A DNA stretch of 64,000 nt from a bacterium. Lineage in GTDB: Bacteria > Zhuqueibacterota > Zhuqueibacteria > Oceanimicrobiales > Oceanimicrobiaceae. The position numbers were made by a program, and so were the translations under genes. Position 1 is the stretch's first letter. Every line of letters begins with the position of its first letter. Below are positions 2 to 25,830 of this stretch, piece by piece. The notes under the pieces are model-generated. The model ran no database searches and was not told where the DNA came from. It saw nothing but the letters and a program-made list of their open reading frames with translations. Location of the stretch: contig JBBIIG010000014.1 of assembly GCA_037446635.1 (NCBI GenBank), positions 16,294 to 80,293 on the forward strand, in the 5' to 3' direction.

Positions 2-178
2 CAGCGTACGGACAACCGCAGTGACTACGGAATGCAATGCCGGGTCTATTTTGTGGATGGCCATTTCACCGGCGTACCGAGTAAGCAAATGATTCAGGTA
101 GCCTTGCAGCACGCGCTGGCTGAGCAACAGGGAATCTCAGTCTTAATTACACGGAGCAATAATGGAGGATTGAATTGA
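2..178 (+). other. 3' end of an upstream ORF running in from the window edge
   Basis: Frame 2 is open from position 2 to TGA at 176-178 ('...MQCRVYFVDGHFTGVPSKQMIQVALQHALAEQQGISVLITRSNNGGLN*') with no start codon inside the window. No family recognised. Confidence 0.2.
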
Positions 179-259
179 TGGATTAATGAAAGACAAACCG
201 CATGAATCCACCGATCCATATATCCATTAATCCTTTGGAAATTTAGAGGAGAAAAGACG

Positions 260-1246
260 ATGACACTCAAAGTAATCTTCTTGACGGGTTTCATTATGGT
301 GTTGGCTTCCGCGCTCTACGCACAGTCAAAAGATTTGCCAGCGGAGTACAAACAGATTCTGCCGCGCGGACAAATTGCGGCCATCACGCAGCCGCAATTT
401 GTTCCAGCCGACAAAGCCGAAATCGCCGATGACTCGTGGGTGCTGGGCGTGGTCATCGACGGTCAGGCACGGGCGTACAGCTTGAATCTGTTGAACAGCC
501 ATGAAGTGGTGAACGACCAAATCGGAGAGCAGGCTTTTGCCGCGGTGTGGTGACCGCTGGCTAATACCGGCGTCGTGTACGACCGCAAATATCAAGATAA
601 AACCATCACGTTTGAAGCTTCGGGCGGGCTGCTAAACAGCGCGTTGGTCATGCAGGATCGCGAGACCGATAGTTACTGGCCGATTATGCAGGGCGAGGCC
701 ATCGCCGGCGAAATGAAGGGGACGAAGTTAAAAGAAATGCCGGTCGCTGAAAAAGTCCAGTGGAAGGATTGGGTCAAAAAGCACCCGAACACATTGGTGC
801 TCTCGGTGAACGGCCGCGAAGACGGCTTCAATCCCTACAAAACATATTTTGAATCGAAAGAAGGCTTTCGCGGGACGGCGGCAAAGGATCGGCGTTTGGC
901 AACTAAGGAGCCGATCTTCGCTTTTCATTATCAAGGAAAAAGTTACGCGGTACCTTATAAGAATTTTGAGGGCGGCAAAACCTTCGATTTGAATGGTGTG
1001 AAACTCTTTCTCTATCGTCCGCCAAAATCCGAAATTTTCTACTCCACCGCGGCCTTTGCGGCTGCGGGTGATGGGTTTAAGATCGAAAACGGAAAGTGGT
1101 ACCACGTGGATTCGGGCTGCCAGTTTAATCCGAATTCGGGTTCATTTGAAAAGGGACCGGGAGCGTGCCCGGAGAAATTTCATGGGTTTGATACCTTTTG
1201 GTACAATTGGAGTTTGTCCAATCCGGATACCCAACTTTTACGGTAA
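260..1246 (+). CDS. DUF3179-family secreted protein interrupted by an in-frame TGA at 551-553 (possible selenocysteine site or pseudogene)
   Basis: ORFs 260..553 and 575..1246 are in the same frame (both = 2 mod 3). The first has a signal peptide (MTLKVIFLTGFIMVLASALYAQS). Read through the stop, the sequence is '...EQAFAAVW*PLANTGVVYDRKY...', which matches the DUF3179 core, so the TGA lies where family members carry the first Cys of the conserved CPLC-type motif, by my recollection of the family. There is an RBS-like GAGGAG upstream of 260. Confidence 0.5.
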
Positions 1247-1354
1247 TTGTAATGAAATGGATTTAACTTTCCGAGAGGAGGTGAAAGAGGAGAGCAAGTA
1301 ACCCCTTTAACTCGCTGTCAAAATTATTCATTCACAAAAAACGGGAGGGTTCCA

Positions 1355-1978
1355 ATGAAAGCATTCAGGACTTTGGTCGTATTCGCTCTGGCAACGGTTG
1401 TAGCTTTTGCTCTGGTCAATCTTTCAGCGCAGGAAACCAAGCATCAGCCCAAACCGCTCACCGAAGAGCAAAAAATGATGATGAAAAACATGGCCATGAA
1501 AAACATGGATAAGTTCATGGCCAGCAAAGACGCCATGATGCAGCTACCTCAGCATCTGAAAAAAACCCAGGACGAATCTATTAAGCTGGGGGAAGAATTA
1601 TTTAATTCGAAGACCGCGCTCAGCACCAATGGCCAGGCTTGCGCCAGTTGTCACCCCGGCGGCGGCACCACCGGCGGCGAAGCCGAGACGCCTATGGCCA
1701 GCGAGGTGACGGGCAAACCGTATAAACTGCCCATCCCGACTCTCATTGGCTCGGCGGCCACGTTTCCGAAATACAAAATTCCTAATGATGCGGTTATTAC
1801 CGTGGGCGATATGGCCAACAACTGCATCATGATGTTTATGGCTGCGCAGCCGCTTGACCCCAAAAGCAAAGAATTTAAGGCGTTGTCTGCTTACGTGACC
1901 TCCTTGAGCAACGAGGACAAAGTGTCGGTGGGAGAAGTGCCAGAGATGATGAAAAAAATGATGGGCGAAAAGAAGTAG
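1355..1978 (+). CDS. secreted monoheme c-type cytochrome
   Basis: Signal peptide (MKAFRTLVVFALATVVAFALVNLSAQE), a single CxxCH heme-binding motif (CASCH) and a Met-rich tail. GGAGG lies upstream of the ATG. Confidence 0.7.
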   Translation: MKAFRTLVVFALATVVAFALVNLSAQETKHQPKPLTEEQKMMMKNMAMKNMDKFMASKDAMMQLPQHLKKTQDESIKLGEELFNSKTALSTNGQACASCHPGGGTTGGEAETPMASEVTGKPYKLPIPTLIGSAATFPKYKIPNDAVITVGDMANNCIMMFMAAQPLDPKSKEFKALSAYVTSLSNEDKVSVGEVPEMMKKMMGEKK

Positions 1979-2058
1979 CTTTTCCATAACTGTGATAACC
2001 CTGACGGGGTTCGCAACCCTGTCAGGGTTAAAACCATTGCACAAACTTTAAATTAGTC

Positions 2059-3072
2059 ATGAAGATTGTCAATATCTGTTTACTATTTGTGGTAGTAAGT
2101 TTGTCTATTGTAACCGCGCAAGATGGTGAAGATGCTGCGCGCTGGAAGAACACGCCGCAGGAGGCTTTCTTAAACAGCGAAATTGTTCAAACCTATCAAT
2201 GCACCAGTTGCCACACCATCGCCGAGCGCGGGGGTACCGTCGGGCCGATCCTGAATCAAGTGGGCAATCGCCGAACCGAAGAGTGGCTGCGCCGCTGGCT
2301 GGCCGACCCGCAGCAGGTTAAGCCCGGAACCAAGATGCCCAAGTTTGATTTCACGCCCGAGCAATTGGATGCGGTGGTCGGCTATTTGACCAACATGAAA
2401 AAAACGCTCCGCACCGATGCCATTCTCGCGCAAAACAAATCTTTAATCGAAACAGGCGAGATGCTGTTTGAGGATTACGATTGCCTGGCCTGCCATCGCG
2501 TGGGCTCCGACGGCAGATTTATCGGGCCGGACTTAACCTGGGTTGGGTTGCGAAAGACCGCGGCCTGGGAAAAAACCTGGCTGGCCGATCCCCCCGGATT
2601 TAAGCCCGATACCTTCATGCCTAATTTTCATATCCCGCAAAAGGGAATAGAAGCGCTGGCGGAGTATCTGCATAACCAGCAAGGACAGAAAAATGCCGAT
2701 TCGCAGGAGTGGGAATTTCGCACCAACTTCTTTCTGGGAAACAGCGATCGCGAACGCGGCGAATTGGTATTCAAGCGCTTTGCGTGTTGGGCGTGCCACG
2801 GTGAGAGCGGCAGCGGCGGCATCAAAAATCCCAACATGGCGCCCGACGAAATGATGCCGCCGCTGAAAGAAGCCGCGGTGAAATATACCGAAGCCGAGCT
2901 TTTGGCGCGGCTGAAAACGAAAACCGCGCCCCGGTCGCTGGATGGCAATAAACCAGCTCCGCCATTTTTCTGTCCGGACTATGGCAATTATATGGAAACT
3001 TCCGAATTCAGCGACCTTTACGCTTATTTGAAATCATTCGCGCCCAAGAAACTCAAGTGGCGGTTTAATTAA
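2059..3072 (+). CDS. secreted triheme c-type cytochrome (three class-I cytochrome c domains)
   Basis: Signal peptide, then three CxxCH motifs (CTSCH, CLACH, CWACH) spaced about 100 aa apart, each followed by a KMP/FMP-type Met ligand region. Confidence 0.7.
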   Translation: MKIVNICLLFVVVSLSIVTAQDGEDAARWKNTPQEAFLNSEIVQTYQCTSCHTIAERGGTVGPILNQVGNRRTEEWLRRWLADPQQVKPGTKMPKFDFTPEQLDAVVGYLTNMKKTLRTDAILAQNKSLIETGEMLFEDYDCLACHRVGSDGRFIGPDLTWVGLRKTAAWEKTWLADPPGFKPDTFMPNFHIPQKGIEALAEYLHNQQGQKNADSQEWEFRTNFFLGNSDRERGELVFKRFACWACHGESGSGGIKNPNMAPDEMMPPLKEAAVKYTEAELLARLKTKTAPRSLDGNKPAPPFFCPDYGNYMETSEFSDLYAYLKSFAPKKLKWRFN

Positions 3073-3280
3073 GTAAGCGGCATTATTCACAGACGGCAAA
3101 AGGTGAGGACGACATCTACATTGAAGTTTATTAATCCAAATGGGAGTAATGGATTATTGGATCGTTGGATCGTAACGCAAACCTCAGGTTTGCCCGCCTG
3201 CCTAAGGCCTCTGGCGGGCAGCTCAAAGCGGAGCTTTGAGTTACATATATAAAATTATCCAAGCTAAAAGGAGCAGAATC

Positions 3281-4012
3281 GTGTCAGTCAGGAAAGTTTT
3301 TTCGATAGCTTTGCTAGCGGTAGTTGCGCTCATCTATTTGGCCAATCATCGTACCTCCGAGGCCAGTTTAAACGGCGGCGCCGTCACCGGCGTGGTGCGA
3401 TTTCCTGGGGAGTATCCGGATCGCGAAAAGATCATGATCACCAAAGACCAGCAGGTTTGCGGCGCGTTTCAGTACTCGGAGATTTTTGTGGTGGCGGAAG
3501 AAAACCACGGGTTGAAAAACGTCGTGATTACGCTGGTAAATGTCAAAGGTGGGCAAGCGCCGGCCGCGGTAACGGCCACCATCGATCAGAAAGGGTGCCG
3601 CTATATGCCCCACGTGCAGGCCGTGCCGGTCGGCAGCAATTTGGAAATTCTGAATAGCGATGGCATCTTGCATAACATTCATGCCTATTACAATGGACTG
3701 GATCCTAAAAATACCGTCTTTAATAAAGCCCAACCTAAGTTTCTCAAAAAAATCACTCATACGCTGGATAAGGCCGGGATGTACTACTTCAAGTGCGATG
3801 TGCACAGTCACATGAGCGCGTATGTGGCGGTGATGGATCACCCGTATTATGCGGTGAGCGATGACTACGGTAAATTTACGATCGATAACGTGCCTCCCGG
3901 TTCCTATAAAATTCAAGCCTGGCATGAGGCTCTCGGCGTTTTAGAGAAGAACGTTACCGTCGCGGCTGGCAAAACCACTGATGTAAATTTTGATATTTTG
4001 CCAAATGAGTAA
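3281..4012 (+). CDS. cupredoxin (blue copper, plastocyanin/azurin-like) fused to a C-terminal CarboxypepD_reg-like beta-sandwich
   Basis: Type-1 copper ligand pattern H...C-x2-H-x4-M ('ILHNIHAY' ... 'FKCDVHSHMSAYV'). The C-terminus ('GKFTIDNVPPGSYKIQAWHEALGV') resembles a carboxypeptidase-regulatory domain. The start is taken as GTG 3281, 7 nt after AAAGGAG. An in-frame TTG at 3236 is an alternative. Confidence 0.6.
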   Translation: MSVRKVFSIALLAVVALIYLANHRTSEASLNGGAVTGVVRFPGEYPDREKIMITKDQQVCGAFQYSEIFVVAEENHGLKNVVITLVNVKGGQAPAAVTATIDQKGCRYMPHVQAVPVGSNLEILNSDGILHNIHAYYNGLDPKNTVFNKAQPKFLKKITHTLDKAGMYYFKCDVHSHMSAYVAVMDHPYYAVSDDYGKFTIDNVPPGSYKIQAWHEALGVLEKNVTVAAGKTTDVNFDILPNE

Positions 4013-4033
4013 TTTATCGAGAGAATGTGAATC

Positions 4034-4520
4034 ATGAAAAAGCTGTTCTTCTATTTTTTAGCCATTTCTAGTTTATTGTTAGTCTCGTGCAATAGTGACC
4101 AACCGTTGGGCAGCAATGACGGGGCAAATCCGAGTAAGTCGGGTTTCGGGGTCTCCGGACTTTTGTTTGAGAACAACCTGGTGATGTGGGATCGCGAGAA
4201 CCAAGGCAGCCGCAGCGAATTATTTCCACAAATGTATTTCACCCGCGCCGACGCCGCCGACTTTCCCACCTGGGACACATTTCCTTCCAACCAGATGGTT
4301 TCCGGCGGTCCGCCACGTGATGGCATACCTGCGCTGACCAATCCCAGAATCGTATCCTCAACTTCATAAGTAACGCGAATCCATTTCAGATGACTGATAA
4401 CGAGACCAACAGCGTTTGGAACATCAAAGGCGAGGCGATTTCCGGTGCACTCTCCGGCGTGAAGCTGACACAGATTCCCGCATACAATGTCAAATCTCAA
4501 TATCGTCGTTCCGATTGCTG
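4034..4520 (+). pseudogene. degraded second DUF3179-family lipoprotein gene (N-terminal 111 aa and C-terminal ~45 aa in different frames, middle missing)
   Basis: ORF 4034..4369 has a lipoprotein signal (LLLVSC) and the DUF3179 N-motif 'GGPPRDGIPALTNPRIVS'. Downstream, frame 0 reads a typical DUF3179 C-terminus ('...[34 protein letters not shown]', stop 4518-4520). The roughly 200 aa that normally lie between the two pieces are absent. Confidence 0.5.
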
Positions 4521-4907
4521 AATGGGGAGGTCGTTGGCGCTCATGTCTCTTCGCCTCATGAGACCCTCCTCATCGAACTCCCAGTGCTCGTTGCCGTGCG
4601 TACGATACCATTGACCGGTATCGGCATCGCGCCATTCGTATTCAAAGCGCACGGAAATGCGGTTATCTGTGTAAGCCCAGAGTTCCTTCATGAGGCGGTA
4701 ATCCAATTCTTTCGCCCACTTTCGTTTCAAAAACTCTTTAATCGCTTCTCTCCCGGTGAAAAATTCAGTGCGGTTTCGCCATTGGGAATCTTCCGTATAA
4801 GCGAGCACAACCCGTTCGGGGTCGCGGGTATTCCAGGCGTCTTCAGCAGCCTTTACTTTCGCCCGTGCGGTCTCTGCAGTGAATGGAGGTTTTATCGGTT
4901 GCTTCAT
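4497..4907 (-). CDS. DUF1348 family protein (NTF2-like fold)
   Basis: The sequence '[58 protein letters not shown]...' matches the strongly conserved DUF1348 signature. Confidence 0.75.
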
Positions 4908-4942
4908 TTTGTGGTTCTCCTCTTGGTAAATTGAATTTATTT

Positions 4943-5275
4943 TTATAAAAGCGTTTTCAGCCTCTCTGTCAACTCACTTTTTGAAATCACCCCGTTTAGT
5001 CGGTCGATCACTCTACCATTTTTGAAAAAGAGCATGGTTGGGATACATTCAATCCCAAATGTCGTGGCGATCGCAGGGTACTCGTCCGCGTTTATTTTCG
5101 CAAAATTAGCTTTACCAGAGAATTCCAGCGCCAAATCTTCGACGATGGCTGTCATGATTTCAGAAGCCCCACTCCAACTGGTCGAGAATAGCACCAGAAC
5201 CGGGAGTACGTTTTCGAGGACCCGGTGATTGAAATTCTTGCTCGTTAATATGATCGTTCTATTGGTTCTCGGCAT
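4943..5275 (-). CDS. thioredoxin-fold protein with active site WSGAS in place of WCGPC (no catalytic cysteines)
   Basis: Thioredoxin-like layout: '[27 protein letters not shown]...[37 protein letters not shown]'. Start chosen at the internal Met (MPRTNRTI) to avoid overlapping the neighbouring gene. The longest ORF runs to 5323. Confidence 0.6.
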
Positions 5276-5295
5276 CGATGTTTTTATGTCATTCG

Positions 5296-5898
5296 TTACA
5301 ACCGAATTCTTGCTGGGCAACACGATCTTAAAATATCCGGGTTTAATTTAGCGATTTCTTCGGCAATTTCTTCACTGGTGAATCGGGGTGTGATATGCTG
5401 CGGGCAGTTCCAATCAAAAGCCTGGATTTTGAAAATGATCAGACGCTCAATGTTGGCTTTGTAATCGGGCATCTTCAGTTCTTTTAACAATTCAGCATTC
5501 TGCTCGGCGTCGATCATTTCTGATTCAGCCCATATTTTCAGACGTTGTTGAGAAGGATAGTCCATTAAGAATAGTGACGCTTTACGGCTCGAATTGATGT
5601 TGCCAACACTGATGTATTGCATGTTGCCGCGAAAATCGGCATAGCCGAGCGTGGTGCTATCGATTACTTTCAGAAATCCTTTCGGACCACCGCGGAATTG
5701 CACATACGGCCAGCCGTTTTCGCCAACGGTAGCCATGTAAAAGCTGTCCCTTGATTCAATAAAAGAAATTTCTCTGTTTGTTAGAACATATTGGTTGCCG
5801 GACGCTTCCACACGGGCGTAGGATTGGCGAGAGCCGTACCGTTGCTGAGCCCTTCTAACGCTATCGGTGAAAGCAAACTTGGTGAAATTCTGGTTCAT
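5296..5898 (-). CDS. pyridoxamine 5'-phosphate oxidase-related FMN-binding family protein
   Basis: 'FTDSVRRAQQRYGSRQSYARVE...FYMATVGENGWPYVQFRGGPKGFLKVID...LGYADFRGNMQYISVGNI' matches the PNPOx-like split-barrel family. ORF of 200 aa. Confidence 0.65.
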   Translation of the reverse strand: MNQNFTKFAFTDSVRRAQQRYGSRQSYARVEASGNQYVLTNREISFIESRDSFYMATVGENGWPYVQFRGGPKGFLKVIDSTTLGYADFRGNMQYISVGNINSSRKASLFLMDYPSQQRLKIWAESEMIDAEQNAELLKELKMPDYKANIERLIIFKIQAFDWNCPQHITPRFTSEEIAEEIAKLNPDILRSCCPARIRL

Positions 5899-5961
5899 GA
5901 TTTTCCTTTTCTTAAACCTCGAAGCCGCGACAGTGAGCCTGCCGCGGCCTTGAGTTTCCGG

Positions 5962-6975
5962 TTATTTCTCCGCGACCAGTTCAAGCTTCGTTGTCAAAAA
6001 GTTTCGGATGTAGCTGGCAATTAGCTCACCATCCTCTTCGAGCGCAAAATGACCCGTGTCCAGCAAATGAAATTCGATGTTCTTTAAGTCACGTTTGTAG
6101 GGATGAGCCCCTTCCGCCGGGAAGATGTAGTCATTCTTGCCCCAAACGATGAGTGTCGGCGGTTGATACTCTCTGAAATAGGCTTGCCAGCGGGGGTACA
6201 AAGGAACATTGGTTTGATAATCATAAAATAATTGCAGCTGTATGGCGGGATTGCCTTCACGTGTCAGATGTCTCAAGTCCATGTTCCACGTGTCGGGGCT
6301 AATGACTTCTTTATTCCTGACGCCATGGGTAAATTGCCATTCGACGCCTTCCTTGGTTATGAATCCTTTGAGCGGCTCCGCATTTTCGGGCGTCCTATCA
6401 TTCCAATATTTCTTTATTGGAACCCAGAACTCTCTCAGTCCTTCGTCGTAGGCGTTGCCATTCTGTACGATGAGCGCTTGCACTCTTTCTGGATGCTTTG
6501 CCGCGATTCGGAAACCCACCGGGGCGCCGTAGTCCATCAAATATATTGAATAAGATTGGATGCCGAGCTGATCCAGAAACTTCTCGATTAGCAGACTATA
6601 ATTATCAAAGCTGTATTCAAACTTGTCCATGGTTGGCTGATCGCTATTTCCAAAGCCCGGGTAGTCGGGAGCAACCAAATGGAACTGATCAGAGAGGGAT
6701 GGGATCAAGTTGCGAAACATGTGGGAAGAAGTCGGAAAACCGTGCAGCAGCAGAATCGTTGGTGCATTGTCAGGTCCGGCCTCGCGATAGAAGATGTTCA
6801 GGCCATCTACATTAACAGTTTTGTAAAAGGTGCGCTGAGTTCTTGAATCAGTTTTGGCCGTCTCTGCCGAGACCGGTTGTGCATCTTTTGTAAACACGGA
6901 CAAGCCAATAACACCGATGATTACAACTGCCGCCAGCATCAGGGCTTTCTGAAAATTAACTTGTAAATGCTTCAT
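5962..6975 (-). CDS. secreted alpha/beta-fold hydrolase (epoxide hydrolase / haloalkane dehalogenase-like)
   Basis: '[38 protein letters not shown]' matches the alpha/beta hydrolase family. Signal peptide present. Start at Met 6975, preceded by AAAGGA. The longest ORF runs to 7041. Confidence 0.7.
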
Positions 6976-7083
6976 GGTCTTAAATCCTTTCTTTATTGAC
7001 TTCATCGTTTTTTCATGATGGAGAGCATTGGGGCTGCCCATCAGCTACAAGCGGACAGCCCAAGTCCTTTCCTTCATTGTTAA

Positions 7084-7830: not shown

Positions 7831-8062
7831 CTTCGTCCTCCTTAATAAGGATTCCTGATTGAGTTTAATTGATTGGTGATGATCATCACTACGGTCGAAG
7901 GCAAGGTGTATGCCACCTGAAATGGCGCAGGAAAATACCAGAGGCAATGGACTGATTATCTAATGGCTTAGGAGACCATCAGACATGTTTTGAAGAGAAT
8001 GAATGGTAGGAATAGAATCTTTGGGATTTCGTAGAACCGCGAAATATCACAGAAAAATGGGG

Positions 8063-13034: not shown

Positions 13035-13517
13035 ATGAATCGTCCCCCGCGTCTATTGACTTGTTTGTTCAGCATGGTCGTTCTTCTCATGTTTGGCCTT
13101 GCCGCCGGCTTTACGCAGGAACACCCCGAACATCCGAAGCAGGAACATCCGAAAAAAGAGCACCCGAAGGCCGCCGTTAATATCACTAAAGAATCGCTGG
13201 CCGAAGCGATTGAAGGCTACATCCAAAAAGACACGGCTTTGAAAGGCGGCTTTTTCTGCGTTTATGATGCGCAGGCAAAAGCTCCGCTGGCGCTCAAGTT
13301 GGACAAAGTGCATCAGGACAAATTGGCGAAGGTGAGCGATGGCCTCTATTTCGCGTGCAGCGACTTCAAGACCGCCGACGGCAAAACCTACGATCTCGAT
13401 TTCTTTATGAAGGCCACCGACTCCGGGCTGGAAGTGAGTGAGGTGATGATCCACAAAGAAGCCGGCGTCGCCCGCTACGGCTGGGTGGAAGAAGGCGGCG
13501 TGTGGACGCGCAAATAA
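13035..13517 (+). CDS. secreted hypothetical protein with His-Pro-rich EHP(K) repeats
   Basis: Signal peptide followed by 'EHPEHPKQEHPKKEHPK'. No recognisable family. GGAGG RBS upstream. Confidence 0.5.
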   Translation: MNRPPRLLTCLFSMVVLLMFGLAAGFTQEHPEHPKQEHPKKEHPKAAVNITKESLAEAIEGYIQKDTALKGGFFCVYDAQAKAPLALKLDKVHQDKLAKVSDGLYFACSDFKTADGKTYDLDFFMKATDSGLEVSEVMIHKEAGVARYGWVEEGGVWTRK

Positions 13518-13667
13518 CGCTTTGCCTGAAAGAGTCGGCGTTAAGTGATTGGAGTGATGGAGCGTCCATCGTGAAGTGATAAAGGGGAGTAATGGAAAAA
13601 CAACGCATCAATCCATTAATCCAGCAATCCATCACTCCATTATATATTAACTTGGGAGAATAGCCGC

Positions 13668-14663
13668 TTGAACAAAATAACGCTTTTGCTTTTCATTAGC
13701 CTCGCCGGTGCCGCCGGTCTTCTTTCCTGCACAAAATCCCCCGCACATTCCAACGATTTGACGAGAAGAATTCAGTTCTCGTATGCCTTCACCGTGAAAA
13801 ACATCCCGCCAGATGCCAAGCGCGTTGACATCTGGGCGCCCGTTCCGCAATCGGATGCGTGGCAAAGCATTTCGAACCTCGAAGTTAGGTGCCAAGCTCC
13901 GTACTCGTTCGAGACCGAGCCGGAATATGGCAACTCGATTCTTCGGGTATCCGCGAATGGCAGCGTTCCCGACAGCCTTTCGGTGGTGATGAATTTTTCG
14001 GTGACGAGGACGGGCTACCACCTTTTGAAAGGCGAGGATGAATCTGTGGGGGCGGTTTCCGAAAAAATCCGCCAGCGTTTTCTCGCTCCGGATCGCTTGA
14101 TTCCCATCGACGGCAAAATCGCGGAGGAAGCAAAAAAAGTCGTGCGCGAGGACATGCCGCCGCTCGAAAAAGCCCGCGCCATTTATGATCACGTCGCCCG
14201 CACGCTCAAGTATGACAAAAGCGGCGCCGGCTGGGGCCTCGGGGACGCGCTCTACGCTTGTGATGTCCGCGCCGGCAATTGTACCGATTTCCATTCGCTG
14301 TTTATCGGCATGGCGCGCGCCAGCGGCATCCCCGCGCGTTTTGTGATTGGATTTCCGCTGCCGGAAGATGCGGCCGTAGGCGAGATTCCCGGCTATCATT
14401 GCTGGGCGGAATTTTATATCGATGGCAGGGGATGGCTGCCGGTGGATGCTTCGGAAGCTAGCAAACATCCGGAAAAATGGCATGATCTCTTCGGCGGTCT
14501 CGATCCTCACCGTGTCCAGTTCACAGTTGGCCGCGACATTCAAATCCCGTCTTTAGCTCAGTCTGAGCCCCTCAATTATCTCATTTATCCCTATGTGCTG
14601 ATCGATGGCCAGCCACATGAGAAGGTAGAGCGGCAGTTCCGGTTTTCGGAGTTGACGAATTGA
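13668..14663 (+). CDS. transglutaminase-like cysteine protease superfamily lipoprotein
   Basis: Lipobox LLSC. Transglutaminase-core triad context 'GNCTDFHSLFIGMARASGIPARFVIGF...GYHCWAEFYIDGRGWLPVDASE'. TTG start. Confidence 0.7.
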   Translation: MNKITLLLFISLAGAAGLLSCTKSPAHSNDLTRRIQFSYAFTVKNIPPDAKRVDIWAPVPQSDAWQSISNLEVRCQAPYSFETEPEYGNSILRVSANGSVPDSLSVVMNFSVTRTGYHLLKGEDESVGAVSEKIRQRFLAPDRLIPIDGKIAEEAKKVVREDMPPLEKARAIYDHVARTLKYDKSGAGWGLGDALYACDVRAGNCTDFHSLFIGMARASGIPARFVIGFPLPEDAAVGEIPGYHCWAEFYIDGRGWLPVDASEASKHPEKWHDLFGGLDPHRVQFTVGRDIQIPSLAQSEPLNYLIYPYVLIDGQPHEKVERQFRFSELTN

Positions 14664-14675
14664 ACGCGGAGTGAA

Positions 14676-17169: not shown

Positions 17170-17190
17170 GCTTAAATAAGGAGTTGTGCT

Positions 17191-17460: not shown

Positions 17461-17495
17461 ATTCTTTCAAAACTAAAACTCGAGGTGAAGTAAGA

Positions 17496-20360
17496 ATGAA
17501 AGTGATCAAAATGTTTTTTGCCGTGGGTGTGATTGTTGTGGTTAGCAGTACTTCGGTGTTCGCGAATGGTTACGCGCGCATCACTGGCACGCTGGTCGAT
17601 GCCGAAACCGGCGAGCCGCTGATTGGCGCCAACGTGTTTTTGGAAAACACCACCATCGGCGCCGCCAGCGATCTCGAAGGCCGCTTTACCATCGCCAAAA
17701 TTCCTTCCGGAAATTACACGGTGGTGGTTTCCATTATTGGCTATTCCACCCGCAAGCTGGCCGATGTTAAAATCGTTGCCGGGGAAACAGTCACTCTTAA
17801 TTTGGCGTTGACGCCGGAAGCCGTTGCCACCGCGGACGTGATTGTCACCGCTGCACTGTTAACCAACACCGAGGCCTCGCTTCTGCGGCAGCGCCAGAAA
17901 TCCATTGCCGTTAGCGACGCCATCAGCGCCGAGGCGATTTCGCGTTCGGCGAGCGGATCGGCTGCCGATGCTATGGAGCAGGTGACTGGCGCCTCCATCG
18001 TCGATGGGCGATACATTTACGTGCGCGGTCTCGGCGATCGTTATATGAACACTCAGCTCAACGGCACGCTTCTCCCCAGCGCCGATCCCAACCGCAACAC
18101 GGTTGCGATGGATTTGTTTCCCGCAAAGTTTATCGAGAACATCGTCACCACCAAAACCTTCACGCCGGACAAACCCGGCAACTTCACCGGCGGCAGTGTA
18201 AACATCACCACCAAGTCGTTTCCCGAGCGCTTCTCCATGTCCTTTTCGGCCTCGTCTGCGTTCAATACTCAGACCTCACTGAAAAGCGGACTGACTTATC
18301 CCGGCGGCGATTTAGATTGGCTGGGATTCGATGATGGCACCCGCGATATTCCAGATCCGCTGACGGATCCGAACGTCGTGATCCCGAACATTGGTTCAGC
18401 GTTTACTAATCGCGAACAAGCGTTGGAGTTGGATCGGCTATCAAAGGCATTCAATCCGGTTATGTCGGTCTCCTCAAAAGACGCGCCGGTGGATCAAAGC
18501 TACGCTTTTTCAGTGGGAAACCAGTTGAGTTTGTTGGGCAAGCCGCTGGGATTTTTTATGAGCCTCAGTTACAATCGCAGCTTTTCTTCCTATCATGATG
18601 GACTCACGGCGCAATACAATTTGAGCGGCAAAGTGGCCGAGGTTAACGAGCTGACGAACCTGTTGGAGTTGAACGACTCCAAGAGTTCGGAAGAGGTGTT
18701 GTGGGGCGGTTTGGCCAGCCTCTCTTTCAAGCCCAGCGCCAGCCACAGCCTTCAGGCCAACTTCACCTACAATCGCACTGGTGAATCGCAGGCGCGTTAT
18801 CAAGTCGGTTCGATGCCGCGCGACCTTGCCCCCGGGACGTTTTACGAAACGCGTGTTTTGAAATGGGTCGAGCGCGACCTGCGCTCATTGCAGTTTAGCG
18901 GCGATCACTATTTCAAGAGTCTCTTGAATATGCGGGTGGATTGGGCCAGCTCGCTCACCGGCTCCAAGCAGGATGAGCCAGACCTGCGCTTCTTCAGCAA
19001 CGACTTTACGCCCTCCGTTCGCCAGGGACGAGATACGACCTTCTACGCCATTTCGGTGTCAAACTATTCGCGCCCCGTGCGTTATTACCGCAACCTCGAG
19101 GAAAATATTTGGGACTCGTATCTCAACATTTCCATTCCATTCAAGCAATGGAGCGGTTTGGGCAGCTCGTTCAAATTTGGCGGCGCTTACGGATTGAAAG
19201 ATCGCACCTTTCGCGAGCGGCGCTACGAATATTTTCAATCATCCATTCGCTACAGCGGCGATCCGGAATCGTTTTTCGCCCCAGAAAATGTCGGCATCGT
19301 TGACAGCACCTCGGGCCGGTTCTACCGGTTTGGCAACTACATTGTGGACGCGACTCAGCCCTCCAGCAACTACGATGGCGAACAGGATATTTACGCTGCT
19401 TTTGCCATGATCGATATGCCACTGCTCCGGCGGCTGCGGCTGATCACCGGCTTGCGGTATGAGACGACGCGCATCGAGGTTGCGAGTCAGGATGCCAGCA
19501 AACAAGCAGGCCAGCTTTCAACAAACGATATCTTGCCGGCCACAAACTTGATTTTTCAATTGACTGAAAATATGAACCTGCGCGCGGCGTACGGCCGGAC
19601 TTTGGCGCGCCCGACATTCCGCGAGTTGGCGCCATTCGCTTCTTTCGATTTTATTGGCGATTTCATTTTCGTCGGCAATGCCAATCTCGAACGCACGCTC
19701 ATCGACAACTTCGACCTGCGCTGGGAATGGTTCTCGCGCCCCGGCGAGATTTTTGCGGTCAGTGGATTCTACAAGAATTTCAAAAATCCCATCGAGCGTG
19801 CCATTGTCTCCAACAACAACAACGGACAATTTCAAAATGTTGACAACGCGCGCGTGATTGGGCTGGAATTTGAGCTGCGCAAGCGCCTCGATCAGATTCA
19901 CCCGATTTTGAGCAACTTTCAAATCGGCGGCAATTTCACTCTCATAAATTCGCGAGTGGATATCCCGCAAAAAGAGCTGTTGCCCATTCTCGCGCTCGAC
20001 CCGAATGCCTCGCATCAGCGCCCATTGCAGGGGCAGTCGCCGTACGTTCTGAACCTCGACCTCGGTTACGACAACAACGCCACGGGCACGGCGGTAAGCG
20101 TGTTCTACAATCTGTTTGGCAGGCGCTTGTCCGAAGTCAGTCTCGGCGGCACACCTAATGTGTTCGAGCAAGCGCGCAGCACGCTGGACGTCACGCTTTC
20201 GCAGAAAATCTGGAAAGGGTTCGCATTGAGAGCTTCCGCAAAGAACCTGCTCGATACCAGTGTTCGCAAGTCACACGCTTATAAAGGCCAGGAGTTTGTG
20301 GTTTCCGAGTACAAGTTGGGGCGCACCTTGTCATTTGGAACAAGCTTCAGTATTAATTGA
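17496..20360 (+). CDS. TonB-dependent outer-membrane receptor with N-terminal CarboxypepD_reg domain
   Basis: Signal peptide. 'ITGTLVDAETGEPLIGANVFLENTTIGAASDLEGRFTIAKIPSGNYTVVVSIIGYSTRK' is a CarboxypepD_reg domain. The plug region ('DGRYIYVRGLGDRYMNTQLNGTLLPSADP') and a C-terminal beta-barrel ending 'TLSFGTSFSIN' follow. Confidence 0.8.
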   Translation: MKVIKMFFAVGVIVVVSSTSVFANGYARITGTLVDAETGEPLIGANVFLENTTIGAASDLEGRFTIAKIPSGNYTVVVSIIGYSTRKLADVKIVAGETVTLNLALTPEAVATADVIVTAALLTNTEASLLRQRQKSIAVSDAISAEAISRSASGSAADAMEQVTGASIVDGRYIYVRGLGDRYMNTQLNGTLLPSADPNRNTVAMDLFPAKFIENIVTTKTFTPDKPGNFTGGSVNITTKSFPERFSMSFSASSAFNTQTSLKSGLTYPGGDLDWLGFDDGTRDIPDPLTDPNVVIPNIGSAFTNREQALELDRLSKAFNPVMSVSSKDAPVDQSYAFSVGNQLSLLGKPLGFFMSLSYNRSFSSYHDGLTAQYNLSGKVAEVNELTNLLELNDSKSSEEVLWGGLASLSFKPSASHSLQANFTYNRTGESQARYQVGSMPRDLAPGTFYETRVLKWVERDLRSLQFSGDHYFKSLLNMRVDWASSLTGSKQDEPDLRFFSNDFTPSVRQGRDTTFYAISVSNYSRPVRYYRNLEENIWDSYLNISIPFKQWSGLGSSFKFGGAYGLKDRTFRERRYEYFQSSIRYSGDPESFFAPENVGIVDSTSGRFYRFGNYIVDATQPSSNYDGEQDIYAAFAMIDMPLLRRLRLITGLRYETTRIEVASQDASKQAGQLSTNDILPATNLIFQLTENMNLRAAYGRTLARPTFRELAPFASFDFIGDFIFVGNANLERTLIDNFDLRWEWFSRPGEIFAVSGFYKNFKNPIERAIVSNNNNGQFQNVDNARVIGLEFELRKRLDQIHPILSNFQIGGNFTLINSRVDIPQKELLPILALDPNASHQRPLQGQSPYVLNLDLGYDNNATGTAVSVFYNLFGRRLSEVSLGGTPNVFEQARSTLDVTLSQKIWKGFALRASAKNLLDTSVRKSHAYKGQEFVVSEYKLGRTLSFGTSFSIN

Positions 20361-20392
20361 GGCACTCAAGGATTATCAATAGGTGAACCAAC

Positions 20393-20916
20393 ATGAATCC
20401 GCGCGCAAAAACCCATACGAGCCGACTATCAACCCAGTTTGTTTTTGGAATTCTGTTCGTGGCCGGCGTCGCCATCGGCCAGCCTCCGACCGGTTTGACT
20501 TTCAAAGAAACGCGTCAATTGTTTCCATGGGCGGATATGTTTAAACCCATCAAGGATATCAATGAGACGACGAAGATTGCCGAAGTTTGGGATACCGACG
20601 ACCCCATCGAATTGCTTGGTTGGGCGATCGTGAAGGAGATGGCTTACGAGGACCGCGAATTCTCACTCGTCTTAGGCATCAAAAAACAAGATCGCGCGAT
20701 TTCAAAAATCATGATCTCCCACAGGACTTCCTCGCGCAATTCGAGGGCCGAAGCTTGCGCCATAGTTTTGAGATTGTTAAAACGCCGGAGGACGAAATGT
20801 TCTTGCCCCGAAAAGTCAGGCCAATCCGGGATCGCATTGAGCTTTCCGAGGAAATTGCCAAGAGCGTGGAAGAGGTGCTTTCCCTGTTTCAGAAAATGAG
20901 CGAAAACGTCAACTGA
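20393..20916 (+). pseudogene. membrane-anchored hypothetical protein split by a -1 frameshift in an A5 run (about 20703-20707)
   Basis: ORF 20393..20899 (frame 2) and 20587..20916 (frame 1) overlap. Inserting one A gives a continuous protein of about 175 aa: '...GIKKQDRAISKNHDLPQDFLAQFEGRSLRHSFEIVKTPEDEMFL...SENVN'. N-terminal TM helix. The function is unknown, though 'FLAQFEGRSL' weakly resembles an FMN-binding domain. Confidence 0.45.
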
Positions 20917-20985
20917 AGATTTGCTAACTCACTCAAATAACCTAATCGAATGACTAATCCTAAACCAGAAGGAGAGGAGGTCTAA

Positions 20986-22647
20986 ATGAAGCGTTGGACA
21001 TTTGTTTTGTTAATCCTGTTATTTCCGGCTGTGCTTGCCGCACAAGGCGTCGTGCAGGTGTTTGATGCGGATATAGTTGGGGATGTGCTTTGGACTAAGA
21101 ACAACACCTACGTTTTGAACGGTTTGGTATTCGTGGAGGACGGCGAGACCTTGACCATCGAAGCTGGCACGGTGGTGAAAGGGAAGCCGGGGCAAGCGGA
21201 GGCGGCGAGTGCGTTAATTGTGGCGCGCGGCGGGAAGATTTTTGCGGAGGGCACGCCGACGCAGCCGATAATTTTCACCGCGGAGGCGGACGACGTGACA
21301 GACCCGAACGATTTGCCGGCGAACACGCGCGGCTTGTGGGGCGGCGTGATTATCTTGGGCCGCGCGGTGATCAACGTGGCAGGCGGGGAGCAGGACATCG
21401 AAGGCATTCCGGTGACGGAGCCGCGGGGGGTTTATGGCGGCACGGACGACGATGACAACAGCGGAGTTTTTCGGTACGTATCGATTCGCTACGGCGGCAC
21501 CAACATCGGGGCCAACAACGAGATCAACGGCTTGACGATGGGCGCGGTGGGGCGCGGGACGACAATTGAATTTGTAGAAGTGTTCAACAACGCGGACGAC
21601 GGCTACGAGTGGTTTGGGGGGACGGTGAACACGCGTTATTTAGTGAGCGCCTTCAACGATGACGACGGTTTTGATTATGATGAAGGGTGGCGCGGCCACA
21701 ACCAATTCTGGTTTTTGATTCAGGCGGAAGACGCCGGCGGTTCGGGCGGTGAGCATGACGGCGGCACGACGCCGGAGGATGGCTTGCCGTTTGCGATCCC
21801 GTTGATTTACAATGCGACGTATATTGGCAGCGGCGCCAGTTCAGCTAACACGCGCAGTGACTTTGCTTTGAACATTCGGGACAACGCGGGCGGGAAGTAT
21901 TACAACAGTATTTTCACGGATTTCTTTGGGCGGGCGGTTCAGATTGAAGATTTGGCGAGTGGGGAAGACAGTCGGGCGCGTTTGGACGCCGGCGATTTGG
22001 TGCTGCAAAACAACATTTGGTTTGGGTTTGGCGCCGGCAGCGCGACCACGGATTTGTTTGCGCAGGATTTCGTGCATACATACATGACCGACGCTGCCAA
22101 CAACAATCGCTTCGTCGATCCCATGCTGAATGGCGTCAGCCGCGCCGCCGATGCCGGCCTTGATCCACGTCCCGATGATGCAAGTCCAGCGTTGAGCGGA
22201 TTCGTTCAGCCGCCGACTGACGGTTTTTTTGCGCCCGTCGATTATGTCGGAGCGTTTGGCGACCAAAACTGGGCAGCCGACTGGACGTTCCTTTCAGAGG
22301 CCGGCTATCTGACGACCGCTGGCGCCCGTACGCCCAACGTGGTCACTTCAGTGGAGGAAGAGCGAATTCCAAACGTTCAGCCCACCAGATTTACGCTCAG
22401 CCAGAATTATCCGAATCCGTTCAACCCGACCACCAACATCAACTATGATTTGGTAACGACTACCCAGGTTCGGTTGACGGTGTACAACCTGCGCGGCCAG
22501 AAAGTCGCCACGCTAGTGGATGGTGTGCGCCCTGCTGGCAGCTACACCGTTACCTGGGATGCCGCAAATCTTTCGAGCGGAATATACATCTACCGTTTGG
22601 AAGCTGGCAAAAATGCCGTCTCGCGTATGATGACGCTTTTGAAGTAA
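20986..22647 (+). CDS. secreted T9SS cargo protein (C-terminal Por sorting domain), Gly/Asp-rich
   Basis: Signal peptide. The C-terminal ~80 aa ('FTLSQNYPNPFNPTTNINYDLVTTTQVRLTVYNLRGQKVATLVDGVRPAGSYTVTWDAANLSSGIYIYRLEAGKNAVSRMMTLLK') carry the T9SS type-A sorting-domain signature. AGGAGG RBS. Confidence 0.8.
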   Translation: MKRWTFVLLILLFPAVLAAQGVVQVFDADIVGDVLWTKNNTYVLNGLVFVEDGETLTIEAGTVVKGKPGQAEAASALIVARGGKIFAEGTPTQPIIFTAEADDVTDPNDLPANTRGLWGGVIILGRAVINVAGGEQDIEGIPVTEPRGVYGGTDDDDNSGVFRYVSIRYGGTNIGANNEINGLTMGAVGRGTTIEFVEVFNNADDGYEWFGGTVNTRYLVSAFNDDDGFDYDEGWRGHNQFWFLIQAEDAGGSGGEHDGGTTPEDGLPFAIPLIYNATYIGSGASSANTRSDFALNIRDNAGGKYYNSIFTDFFGRAVQIEDLASGEDSRARLDAGDLVLQNNIWFGFGAGSATTDLFAQDFVHTYMTDAANNNRFVDPMLNGVSRAADAGLDPRPDDASPALSGFVQPPTDGFFAPVDYVGAFGDQNWAADWTFLSEAGYLTTAGARTPNVVTSVEEERIPNVQPTRFTLSQNYPNPFNPTTNINYDLVTTTQVRLTVYNLRGQKVATLVDGVRPAGSYTVTWDAANLSSGIYIYRLEAGKNAVSRMMTLLK

Positions 22648-22658
22648 CAGTCGACGAC

Positions 22659-22897
22659 TTGCCACGCACTTCAAAAGTGCGTGGCACGTTTTGAGTAACC
22701 TGGAATTGCCTGGCACTTTAAAAGTGCCAGGCAATTTTAATCCCGTGCCATGCCCTTCAAAAGTGCCTGGCAAGTGTATAACCAAAAACTCCCTTCACTC
22801 TCGAACCTTTCCTCGAGTCAGGCGCTGGGCTAAGTTAGCCGGCGCCTGTTTTATTTTGAAGTGCACAAGTGCCAGGCACTTTCAAAGTGCCTGGCAC
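22659..22897. repeat. four tandem copies of a 28-29-nt palindromic REP-like element (TGCCAGGCACTTnAAAAGTGCCTGGCA family) with an embedded hairpin+T-tract terminator (about 22828-22860)
   Basis: Copies at 22659-22687, 22707-22734, 22745-22772 and 22869-22897. Each is a 9-bp stem around a TTYAAAA loop. Additional copies lie at 32757-32785 and 40788-40816. Confidence 0.75.
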
Positions 22898-22986
22898 TTT
22901 GTCTCCCCGGCTTTTCTGTTGCATTTCAGGACGATTTGTTTTAAAATTCAACAAAATTCAACAAACAATTTTAGCCGCGATGACTC

Positions 22987-23979
22987 ATGAAACCACAACC
23001 GCAGAAGCTAGCGTTCGTCTACTTCGTTCTGGTTATTTGTGGCTGTCTCAACGACGCCGACCGCAACAACCCGCTCGATCCCGCTTCTCCAAATTTTAAA
23101 AACACCGGGGGCATTTCCGGGCAAACACTTAGTTTTTACTCGCCGTTTTCTCCTATCGCCGATGTGGAAGTTCGTTTAGACCCCGGCCCGCTGTTGACGA
23201 CCAGCGACGCTCAAGGCCGATTTAGTTTTGCAAATTTACTCGCGGCGGCCTACCAGATTCGCGCCTCCAAAGATGGGTATGCCGCAGTTTTCGACACGGT
23301 CGAAGTTCCGCTGCAGCAACTGGCACAAATAAGTTTGAATCTGGACGCCTTGCCCGTGATCACGAACCCCCGCGTCAGCTCCAGCCACATCAGCCGCTGG
23401 TGGCCGCAGACCGATTTGTATTTGCTCGCGGCCAACGTTCGAGTGGAGGATTTAGACGGCGTCAACGACATCGCCACCATCGAGTTGCTGATTCCGGATT
23501 TGAGTTTCGTCGATACGTTGTCGATGACGGCCGCGCCGGGAGTGTTTCAGATTCAGGTTCTGGAATCGCAGTTGCCGGGGCGCAACTTGCAGGAGGTGTT
23601 GGGACGAGAGATTTTGATTCGCGCCAAAGATCGCGCAGGCTTCAACAGCACGTCGGCGCCGCAGTTCATCGCCCGCATTATTGAGGAGGTGCCAATAACG
23701 TTATCTCCGCAGGGATTAGAAACCGTTGCCACCGCCAATCCCACTTTGCAGTGGCAGGCACTGAACCAGCCCTATCGCTTCACGTATCGCGTTGAGTTGT
23801 ATCGCGTGGATTTTGGCATTAACAATCTGGTTTGGCAACGTGGCGAGATTGATCGCGCTACCACAGAAATCATCGTCCCGGAAAATCTGACTCCCGGAAC
23901 TTATTTCTGGACTATCGCCGTAGTTGATGAATTTGGCAACCTGAGCCGCTCGAAAGAGGCCTCGTTTCAAGTGAATTAA
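22987..23979 (+). CDS. hypothetical lipoprotein with beta-sandwich (CarboxypepD_reg/Ig-like) domains
   Basis: Lipobox VICGC. 'DVEVRLDPGPLLTTSDAQGRFSFANL' is a CarboxypepD_reg-like region. No catalytic motif. Confidence 0.55.
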   Translation: MKPQPQKLAFVYFVLVICGCLNDADRNNPLDPASPNFKNTGGISGQTLSFYSPFSPIADVEVRLDPGPLLTTSDAQGRFSFANLLAAAYQIRASKDGYAAVFDTVEVPLQQLAQISLNLDALPVITNPRVSSSHISRWWPQTDLYLLAANVRVEDLDGVNDIATIELLIPDLSFVDTLSMTAAPGVFQIQVLESQLPGRNLQEVLGREILIRAKDRAGFNSTSAPQFIARIIEEVPITLSPQGLETVATANPTLQWQALNQPYRFTYRVELYRVDFGINNLVWQRGEIDRATTEIIVPENLTPGTYFWTIAVVDEFGNLSRSKEASFQVN

Positions 23980-24059
23980 CCGGAGTAAAACGCTTAAGCG
24001 TTTCACTCCGAAGTCTATAGGGGCGTATGACTATACGCCCCTGCGAAGTGAACCACCAA

Positions 24060-25547
24060 ATGCAAATCAAATCCAACAACTCGCGCTCTTCCCTCGAAGC
24101 CCTTTCCGAAATCGCGCAGGTGATCAACACCATTCAGGAGATCGATCCCCTGCTCGAAAAAGTTTTGGAGATCGCAATGGCCACGCTGGAAGCGGAGCGC
24201 GGATTCGTGCTGCTAAAATCTGCCGCGGCGCCGCAGGGTTTCGAAATCCGCAGCAGCCGCAATTTCGCCGAAACGCAGATTTCCGATCTCACCCGCATTT
24301 CCACCAGCGTGGTGCAAGCGGTGCTGAGCGCCGGCGAACCGTTGCTGGTTTATGAAGCGCAGACCGATCCCAAATTCCGCGAGACCGAGAGCGTGGTGCT
24401 GCAAAAAATCCAGTCCATTGCCTGTGTGCCGCTGCGGCTGAAAGCCAAACAGATCGGCGCCATTTATCTCGACAGCCTCACCCGCCGCAGCAAATTCACG
24501 CAGGACAGCCTGCCGTTTCTGACGGCGTTCGCCAATCAGGCCGCCATCGCCATTGAAAATGCCAAGCTCTATCACGCCCTGCGGGATGAAAATCGCCGGC
24601 TGCGCTCTGAGGTGCAGCGGCTGCACGGTTTCAAAGAGATCATCGGGCAGAGCCCGAAGATGCGCGCGGTGTTCGACATGCTGAGCCGGGTAGTGGAGTC
24701 CGATGCCACCGTGCTCATCGAAGGCGAGAGCGGCACCGGCAAAGAACTGATCGCCCGCGCGCTGCATTACAACGGGCCGCGCAAAGACCAGCCGTTCATG
24801 GCGCTGTTTTGCGGCTCGCTGCCGGACTCGCTGTTGGAAAGCGAGCTCTTCGGCCACAAAAAGGGCGCGTTCACCGGCGCGGTTTCGGACAAACGCGGAC
24901 TTTTTGAAGCGGCGGACGGCGGCACGTTTTTTCTCGATGAAATCGGCGATCTCAGCCCGCAAATTCAAACCAAGCTGTTGCGCGTTTTGCAGGAGGGCGA
25001 AATCAAACGCGTGGGCGAAAATCAAATTCGCAAAGTGGACGTGCGCATCGTCTCCGCTACCAACAAAGTGCTCAAAGATTTGGTGAAAGCCGGCAGCTTT
25101 CGCGAAGACTTGTTTTATCGCCTCAACACCATCAACATCGTGTTGCCGCCGCTGCGCCAGCGCAAAAGCGACATCCCGCTTTTAGCGCATCACTTTCTCG
25201 ACAAGTATGCCGCCAAGAAAAAAAATCACATCAAAGGATTCGACAAATCCGCGCTCGAGGCGTTGACGAATTATTTGTGGCCCGGCAACGTGCGCGAGCT
25301 GGAAAACACGATCGAACGCGCGGTGGTGATGGCGCGCGGTGAGTTTATCACCGTCGCGGATTTGCAACTGCCGAAAAATGAGCCCGCGGCAGAAATCGAA
25401 TCCGGTTTAACTCTGGAAGAAGTCGAAAAGCGGTTGGTGCAAAAAACATTGCTGGATCAAAACCATAATATCTCCGAAACCGCGCGCGTGCTGGGCGTGT
25501 CGCGGCGCTGGCTGCATTATAAAATCAAAGAATGGAATATTTCGTGA
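24060..25547 (+). CDS. sigma-54-dependent transcriptional activator (GAF + AAA+ + Fis HTH), paralogue of 8063..9613
   Basis: GESGTGKE, '[15 protein letters not shown]' and a C-terminal HTH ('[22 protein letters not shown]'). The longest ORF starts at 24027, but that ATG lies inside a conserved intergenic hairpin, so Met 24060 (MQIKS) is preferred. Confidence 0.8.
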
Positions 25548-25585
25548 GCAATTCGTAAATCGCTGAGCAAGGTGTTAATTAAGAG

Positions 25586-25830
25586 AATGGAGTATTGGAT
25601 TGATGGAGTAATGGATTAATGCGCCAGCGTTCCCACTCCTTGCCAAGGAGGGGGTTAGGGGGGTCGGTGATCTGATGTGGAGTTGTGGAGTACTGGATTA
25701 ATAGATGACTGCTTTGGGACGATGCGCTCTTCGCTTGACCCGTACGAATGTGCGCTTTTTCATCACTCCACTACTCCATCAATCCATTACTCCAATAATC
25801 CAATAATCCAATAATCCATCAACTCCGTCA
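25586..25830. repeat. about 245-bp MITE-like element bounded by imperfect inverted repeats built from GGAGTAATGGATT / TGGATTAATG words
   Basis: Left arm 'atggagtattggattgatggagtaatggattaatg'. Right arm 'catcaatccattactccaataatccaataatccaataatccatc', which is the reverse complement of the same word set. Related shorter copies lie at 159-236, 3129-3172 and 13545-13645. Confidence 0.6.

Follow-up and report, generated by a model that had tools for sequence, protein, structure and literature searches.

Octamer-repeat hairpins in the gene spacers of a Zhuqueibacterota contig: a dispersed family associated with PF05635 four-helix-bundle genes

A stretch of 64,000 nucleotides from a bacterium of the phylum Zhuqueibacterota (assembly GCA_037446635.1, contig JBBIIG010000014.1, positions 16,294 to 80,293 of the forward strand), here called the window, was analyzed for a family of short repeat elements which lie between its genes. 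Five copies of a dispersed repeat are present in this 64-kb window. The repeat unit is the tandem octamer TGGAKTRW, usually followed by an array of the inverse unit WYAMTCCA, and the complete form is the convergent pair 5'-(TGGAKTRW)n - loop - (WYAMTCCA)n-3' (Table 1). An earlier note on this DNA had reported four such copies and had described them as possible miniature transposable elements (MITE-like, after miniature inverted-repeat transposable elements) donating promoters or regulator-binding arrays to the genes downstream. The words and the positions given there for the copies are correct. The word TGGAKTRWTGGAKTRW, with at most one mismatch, has 18 matches in the window against 0.05 expected, a number reached by none of 100 dinucleotide shuffles, and all 18 are confined to 171-186, 3142-3165, 13550-13639, 25588-25818 and 33009-33024; the last of these sites (copy 5) had been overlooked. 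Tandem Repeats Finder (TRF) reports period 8 for the arrays, often with a 16-nt super-period; the true unit is an octamer. A scan of the window against Rfam at gathering thresholds returned no family and no rRNA.

Table 1. Repeat features of the window (positions count from the first letter of the window; strand as reported, a point standing for none)
Feature	Position	Strand	Composition or evidence
Copy 1, degenerate octamer hairpin	155-234	.	+ units 163-186, inverse arm 201-234
Copy 2, solo array of 4 units, GGGAGTAA TGGATTAT TGGATCGT TGGATCGT	3131-3173	+	array calling
Copy 3, convergent hairpin	13550-13639	.	+ units 13550-13565 and 13585-13600; - array (4 units) 13608-13639
Copy 4, left arm, 4 units, TGGAGTAT TGGATTGA TGGAGTAA TGGATTAA	25588-25619	+	TRF, array calling
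Copy 4, GC-rich insert, 56 nt, palindrome CTCCTTGCCAAGGAGGGGG, non-octamer	25622-25677	.	missing from the orthologous spacers of L116 and L118
Copy 4, inner array, 3 units, TGGAGTTG TGGAGTAC TGGATTAA	25678-25701	+	array calling
Copy 4, right arm, 7-8 inverse units including 3 x AATCCAAT	25761-25826	-	TRF, array calling
Copy 5, minimal, 2 units, TAGATTGA TGGATTAA	33009-33024	+	pattern match
Other repeat family of like layout, about 10 AATCGGA-like heptamers, then a short inverse partner TTCGATTTCCG	41827-41925	.	TRF period 7, 10 copies, 80% matches

All the genes next to the copies are on the + strand and co-directional, and the neighbours named earlier for copies 1-4 are the right ones. Copy 1 ends 25 nt before the ATG at 260 of a DUF3179 gene; copy 2 starts 69 nt past the stop at 3072 and is followed by a cupredoxin-like gene; copy 3 lies 32 nt past the stop at 13517 and 28 nt short of the TTG start at 13668 of a transglutaminase-like gene; copy 4 lies 40 nt past the preceding stop and 20 nt short of the ATG at 25847 of a Ser/Thr kinase gene; and copy 5 is followed after 18 nt by the ATG (33043) of a gene for a pyridine-nucleotide disulphide oxidoreductase. 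The distance of 20-100 bp upstream of start codons claimed earlier therefore holds roughly (20-110 nt), but copies 2-4, for which it was measured, are equally 32-69 nt past the preceding stop, because all the neighbouring genes are co-directional.

Inverted termini had been described for each copy, and on folding this is borne out for two of them. Copy 3 (-31.8 kcal/mol, z -4.35) and the whole copy 4 element at 25570-25846 (-99.9 kcal/mol, z -4.7) fold well beyond their shuffled controls, with no shuffle as good in either case. Copy 1 is weak (arms of 34 nt, 71% complementary, 12-nt gap, z -2.3). Copy 2 is one-armed, with a single inverse unit TTAATCCA at 3131-3138 ahead of its + array and no significant hairpin (z -1.6), and copy 5 has no hairpin (z +0.4). 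Copy 4 is composite, as had been said, but its arms measure 34-35 nt and not 45 bp, with 83-88% complementarity and 139-163 nt between them; a stretch of about 60 nt separates the inner + array from the right array. The 56-nt insert of copy 4 shows no similarity to genes of the PF05635 family described below, and a search for remnants matched only the octamers of copy 4 itself. This insert holds the GC-rich palindrome TTCCCACTCCTTGCCAAGGAGGGGG (25622-25677), and a similar TTCCCCTCCTTACCAAGGAGGGG at 5620-5660 of locus L001, from a metagenome-assembled genome (MAG) labelled Chlamydiota, adjoins an octamer array. As a repeat family of its own the palindrome CTCCTTGCCAAGGAGG was rejected, one similar site among 210 loci being too few; judged from these two sites among the 210 loci, it may be a second small element which nests in the arrays.

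Beyond the window, 185,579 species genomes were scanned with TGGAGTAATGGATTRWTG, with a yield of at least 115 loci. Since about 70 matches are expected by chance in the 596 Gb by our own arithmetic, every locus was checked individually; none of the fetched loci overlaps the window. About three quarters of the matches listed are real multi-unit arrays, often several per MAG, and the MAGs which bear them are labelled KSB1, Calditrichaceae, Ignavibacteriales, Bacteroidota, Brocadiaceae, Verrucomicrobiota, Chlamydiota, Deltaproteobacteria, Thermodesulfovibrio and Acidobacteria, these labels spanning about ten phyla. Matches in Firmicutes are bare two-unit ones only, as expected by chance. The window copies belong to a dispersed family flanked by inverted repeats, which is present in many genomes.

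Throughout this family, positions 1-4 and 6 of the octamer are nearly invariant, and variation is found at position 5 (G/T), 7 (A/G) and 8 (A/T). The arms have from 2 to more than 80 units, and the loops, mostly of 4-60 nt, are unrelated to each other and have no common internal sequence. Among the array pairs of the fetched loci 53 are convergent and 1 is divergent. This polarity is not due to hairpin stability, because the reversed layout would pair equally well. At the variable positions the complementarity between the two arms is 0.61, against a null of 0.65 +/- 0.02 obtained by swapping arms between elements; the pairing of the arms rests on the five fixed positions and gives no sign of compensatory selection.

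The elements prefer a particular gene context, and 91 of 99 fall outside called open reading frames (ORFs). The spacers occupied are co-directional in 47 cases, convergent in 17 and divergent in only 4 (p=0.007). Within co-directional spacers the upstream stop is at a median distance of 24 nt and the downstream start at one of 82 nt, with 34 elements nearer the stop and 13 nearer the start (Wilcoxon p=0.0013), and solo arrays are more often sense (16) than antisense (6; p=0.05). The placement of the arrays is biased towards the 3' ends of genes and the insides of operons.

For copy 4 the orthologous junction was compared in relatives, using syntenic contigs which were reached via homologs of the kinase; the best named relatives of the window kinase are KSB1, with 43-46% identity. 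In the window the spacer between the sigma-54 activator gene and the kinase gene is 299 nt. In L116 (kinase identity 81%) it is 125 nt and holds two + units and one inverse unit; the left flank is shared with the window, and the first two left-arm units of copy 4 are conserved there as well. L118 (65%) has a spacer of 126 nt with decayed inverse units, and in L120 (64%) the two genes overlap and the spacer is 0. Spacers of 0, 125, 126 and 299 nt across orthologous junctions mean that the copy 4 element is dispensable, and the arrays grow and shrink by whole units. The junction is probably inside an operon, since the flanking genes overlap in L120.

A full-length form of the element carries a gene. 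At two loci of the genome collection, L017 and L027, + and - arrays about 500 nt apart exactly bracket a small ORF, frameshifted in L027, which belongs to PF05635 ('23S rRNA-intervening sequence protein', E 1e-18) and TIGR02436 ('four helix bundle protein', E 6e-21). The enclosed protein has about 145 aa and is an Avd-like four-helix bundle; no defence-system model of PADLOC matches it. A metagenome search with peptide patterns taken from the protein interior only gave 462 confirmed relatives, from which the best 80 were retained, and 68 of these have flanking sequence of 100 nt or more on each side of the gene. At least two + units are found just upstream in 67 of the 68 and at least two - units just downstream in 56; 55 have both, and all 68 have an array on at least one side. 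About half of the best 80 relatives share a single orthologous junction, which separates E2 from E3 in a 2-oxoacid dehydrogenase operon (E2|E3), and the rest occupy at least 15 other contexts. Complete hairpins stand on either side of the PF05635 gene in L125 and L190. Some arrays are very large: L143 (723-1898, 2378-2513) has 82 and 62 units (more than 1.1 kb) upstream of its PF05635 gene and 17 downstream, and another very large octamer array lies at 655-1877 of L149. Arrays of this size are likely to break short-read assemblies.

The same layout is also found with other repeat units. A profile hidden Markov model (HMM) built from the L017-like proteins detected distant PF05635-like ORFs in L025 (Calditrichaceae) and L008, with convergent heptamer flanks which are AAGTGAG-like in L025 and GTTCAGN in L008; elsewhere in the L025 locus there is also an ordinary octamer array. 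In cultured cyanobacteria, period-7 arrays lie beside all five of the five plasmid genes annotated as four-helix bundle or 'S23 ribosomal protein', and convergently on both sides in four of the five, each plasmid with its own heptamer (AGGGTGT, AAGGCAG, AGGGAAG, AGGGAAC, TCTGCCC).

At the E2|E3 junction of L211 a different PF05635 gene, whose protein has no BLASTP similarity to that of L017, lies between arms of TCCTCG type. In L212 the same junction has L211-type arms, the first 20 nt or so of the ORF and the ORF tail, and the gene is gone; the E3 of this relative is also about 85% identical to the query, and in another relative the E2|E3 spacer is only 20 nt. L212 thus shows directly a derivative which has been deleted internally and reduced to its arms. 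The E2|E3 junction is occupied by two unrelated PF05635 subfamilies, one with octamer and one with TCCTCG-type arms (L209, L210 and L207 at about 2400-3000; L211 at 1927-2500; L212 at 2418-2500), and appears to be a favoured landing site. The idea that the G-rich arm always precedes the other was dropped as a universal rule, as the arms of L211 and L212 run the opposite way, pyrimidine-rich first. A recent transfer of the cassette across phyla, suggested by proteins 85-90% identical with Verrucomicrobia and Acidobacteria labels, was also rejected: the adjacent E3 genes, 85-94% identical, conflict in the same manner, so that the taxon labels are unreliable. The entries concerned are P0130, P0131, P0136, P0242, P0247, P0254 and P0275, where PF05635 and E3 proteins 85-94% identical are labelled Verrucomicrobiota in some cases and Acidobacteria (Sulfopaludibacter, Acidoferrales) in others.

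The explanation which fits best, to which we give a probability of roughly 0.6, is that the window copies are gene-less (solo) members of a family of repeat hairpins resembling the intervening sequences (IVSs) of 23S rRNA, the full form of which brackets a PF05635/TIGR02436 gene. Since they lie in short spacers between co-directional genes, the window copies are probably transcribed along with the neighbouring genes, and the transcribed copies would probably form long imperfect RNA hairpins between the cistrons. By analogy with IVS stems, such hairpins could serve as processing or 3'-end-protecting structures, for example as substrates of RNase III, and not as promoters. Cassettes which lose their interior by deletion are probably the source of the solo copies, and we infer such a descent for the copies of the window. 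The cassettes themselves probably spread via some mechanism tied to the cognate four-helix-bundle protein, which would recognise its own repeat unit, and not via a classical transposase.

Several points weigh against this explanation. HMM and similarity searches of the 64-kb window and of the copy 4 core found neither a PF05635 gene nor a remnant of one, so that the window copies would be linked to PF05635 only through their shared arms. The gene is present in only 2 of about 100 arrays of the genome collection, so that the arrays could come first and the gene land in their loops. About half of the 80 cassette loci are not independent, coming from one orthologous junction; the deletion derivative of L212 is a member not of the octamer family but of a sister family whose arms differ; pairing between the two arms shows no sign of selection; and the gene calls behind the context statistics are simple longest-ORF calls.

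Among known systems the 23S rRNA IVSs of Leptospira, Coxiella burnetii and Brucella are among the nearest (PMC4990558). Both kinds of element have an inverted-repeat stem, a PF05635 gene of about 120-150 aa in the loop (here in the full-length form), and variable short tandem repeats by an ORF which is often decaying; IVSs are deemed selfish and their mode of spread is unknown. The IVS of Coxiella is described as a selfish element with S23p in its loop; RNase III cuts its inverted-repeat stem of 28 bp, and tandem heptamers (GACAGAT) in varying number lie upstream of the decaying ORF (PMC4990558). In the window a significant stem is found in copies 3 and 4, copies 1 and 2 being weak; the PF05635 ORF within octamer arms, present in L017, L027 and the metagenomic relatives (68 of 68), is found in no window copy. 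Unlike IVSs, the octamer elements lie between protein-coding genes and not in helix 25 or 45 of 23S rRNA, their stem consists wholly of degenerate tandem octamers, and most copies, including all those of the window, are without an ORF. Excision by RNase III has been shown for IVSs and would extend to the octamer hairpins by analogy only.

The intergenic heptamers of other bacteria are also alike, being tandem units, single or in convergent pairs, whose copy number varies among relatives and which occur across phyla. GGGAATC in Xanthomonas, GGGGAYT in Nostoc and the short tandemly repeated repetitive (STRR) sequences of Calothrix are of unknown function, with 70-75 convergent pairs per Xanthomonas genome (PMC4692102), and TAACTGA repeats are found in Beggiatoaceae, Cyanobacteria and Bacteroidetes, a cross-phylum distribution of unknown mechanism (PMC4679880). 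The present unit differs in having 8 nt, and it is tied here to PF05635, as are the heptamer arrays on the cyanobacterial plasmids; terms for S23 or four-helix bundle have no occurrence in PMC4692102 or PMC4679880. It is conceivable, and we put it forward tentatively as something short of an even chance, that the tandem-repeat hairpins (octamers, cyanobacterial STRR-type heptamers, perhaps also the Xanthomonas and Beggiatoa repeats) are the cis arms of one widespread class of selfish cassettes, in which an Avd-like PF05635 gene is the sole gene, each subfamily has its own unit and gene-less hairpins are deletion derivatives. As each subfamily has its own unit, the protein would in such a class recognise or propagate its own arms without a recognisable transposase.

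A different reading, rather unlikely in our estimate, takes the units as DNA or RNA binding sites for the cognate protein or another factor, the solo arrays then making up a regulatory or structural network which acts in trans, with the hairpin being incidental; it overlaps with the explanation by gene-less cassette relatives and is compatible with it. The unit tracks the protein subfamily, as octamers go with L017-like proteins and distinct 6-7-mers with L025, L008, L211 and each cyanobacterial plasmid protein, and heptamers flank the L025 gene although its MAG has octamer arrays elsewhere. The missing co-variation between arms and the sense bias of the solo arrays are also in its favour. Avd-type proteins of diversity-generating retroelements (DGRs) are reported to act together with nucleic acid and a reverse transcriptase, which fits this reading too. 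Against it, a period of 8 bp does not match the helical repeat of DNA, the window has no PF05635 gene, and the co-variation of unit and subfamily comes from about ten subfamilies only, without a phylogeny.

The classical MITE, a non-autonomous cut-and-paste element whose octamer termini are recognised by a transposase acting in trans and which supplies promoters or operator arrays downstream, has in our view little probability. Bacterial MITEs are similarly small and intergenic, have inverted termini (here 53 of 54 pairs, in the window only copies 1, 3 and 4) and occur in gene-carrying and deleted forms. The fixed polarity of the terminal inverted arrays from outer to inner end, the dispersal of copies over many genomes and the deletion-derivative relation of L211 and L212 at one site all speak for such an element, as does one IS256-like transposase ORF in L042 (448-1941), which has a + array (622-707) on one side and a - array (2333-2372) on the other, its frame running into the array. 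This is a single case, probably an insertion sequence which has landed in or beside an array, and the gene enclosed by the arms is PF05635 in 68 of 68 and not a transposase. A longer form which carries a gene does exist, but its cargo is a PF05635 four-helix-bundle protein. Target-site duplications, which the earlier note had asked for, are not enriched: of 51 elements, 7 have a flanking direct repeat of at least 4 nt, the share among random controls being 21%. Arm length varies, fixed length and a common core are lacking, and the copy 4 junction is probably intra-operon in relatives. For the proposed donation of promoters, a search for sigma-70-like promoters at 25300-26000, around the largest copy, predicted none. 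The proximity to stop codons and the rarity of divergent spacers are the reverse of the pattern expected of promoter donors and, together with the lack of target-site duplications, speak against both the donation of promoters and a classical MITE. The idea of donated promoters is not supported, and the term MITE-like can be used for the window copies only loosely.

Repetitive extragenic palindromic (REP) elements stabilise the upstream mRNA in Escherichia coli. REPs, with bacterial interspersed mosaic elements (BIMEs) and the REP doublets called REPINs, are likewise short dispersed imperfect palindromes in spacers, often after stops and inside operons (PMC3333891, PMC3116915). REPs differ in being single palindromes of 20-40 nt with a GTAG or CGTC head and a REP-associated tyrosine transposase (RAYT, a Y1 transposase) as partner, whereas the octamer elements start with TGGA, have multi-unit arms and are associated with PF05635.

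Plain microsatellites, that is immobile and gene-independent products of local polymerase slippage in AT-rich spacers which became alike by convergence, are improbable as well. The number of units does differ among orthologous junctions, the 16-nt super-periods are consistent with slippage of blocks, and heptamer simple repeats of unknown function are known, as inverted pairs in Xanthomonas and Nostoc (PMC4692102) and in Beggiatoaceae (PMC4679880); against this stand one 8-nt unit with the identical three variable positions in about ten phyla, the strict polarity and the near-exceptionless flanking of one gene family. Repeat addition at DNA ends is a further conceivable origin: at a break, a templated, telomerase-like or reverse-transcriptase activity, perhaps aided by the Avd-like protein, would extend each of the two 3' ends with (TGGAKTRW)n, and rejoining would give the convergent pair. 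This would account for the 53-to-1 polarity and the independent arms, and PF05635 proteins are homologs of Avd, the partner of reverse transcriptase in DGRs. The idea is wholly conjectural, however, and we regard it as very improbable: the neighbourhood of the cassettes showed no reverse transcriptase (no systematic look was made), and the pyrimidine-rich-first arms of L211 and L212 give no universal G-rich-strand rule.

The homology of PF05635 proteins to the DGR accessory protein Avd is described in PMC10053308. The gene tables of L207-L212 show only the pyruvate dehydrogenase (PDH) operon and unrelated neighbours and no reverse-transcriptase family; no search for template or variable repeats was made there.

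Intergenic heptamers (STRR, GGGAATC, TAACTGA) and 23S rRNA IVSs have been described for decades, and their origin, mobility and function are not agreed. Here an 8-nt repeat of many uncultured phyla is tied to PF05635 genes, and the same layout, in units of 6-7 nt, extends to plasmids of cultured cyanobacteria. This provides a testable hypothesis, namely that the repeat unit follows the protein subfamily and that solo hairpins are deleted cassettes, for which the plasmids of Nostoc and Calothrix are accessible test systems. Annotators should enter these hairpins as repeat elements of operon spacers and not as promoters. The literature on the octamer words, or on four-helix-bundle genes with tandem repeats, gave nothing specific; its coverage was incomplete and a prior description is possible.

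Some smaller features of the window were also recorded. The DUF3179 frame beside copy 1 (260-1246) is broken by an in-frame TGA at 551-553 (TGG TGA CCG) into ORFs 260-553 and 575-1246, which could reflect a pseudogene, a sequencing error or a recoded codon. One neighbouring gene has a type IX secretion system (T9SS) sorting domain, which is suggestive of the FCB group. Just 3' of copy 2, at 3180-3245, GC-rich stem-loops of non-octamer type (caaacctcaggtttg; gcccgcctgcc...ggcgggc; agctcaaagcggagctttgagtt) come before a probable GTG start near 3281. The heptamer hairpin listed last in Table 1 occupies the spacer which runs from the stop at 41823 to the next start at 41948.

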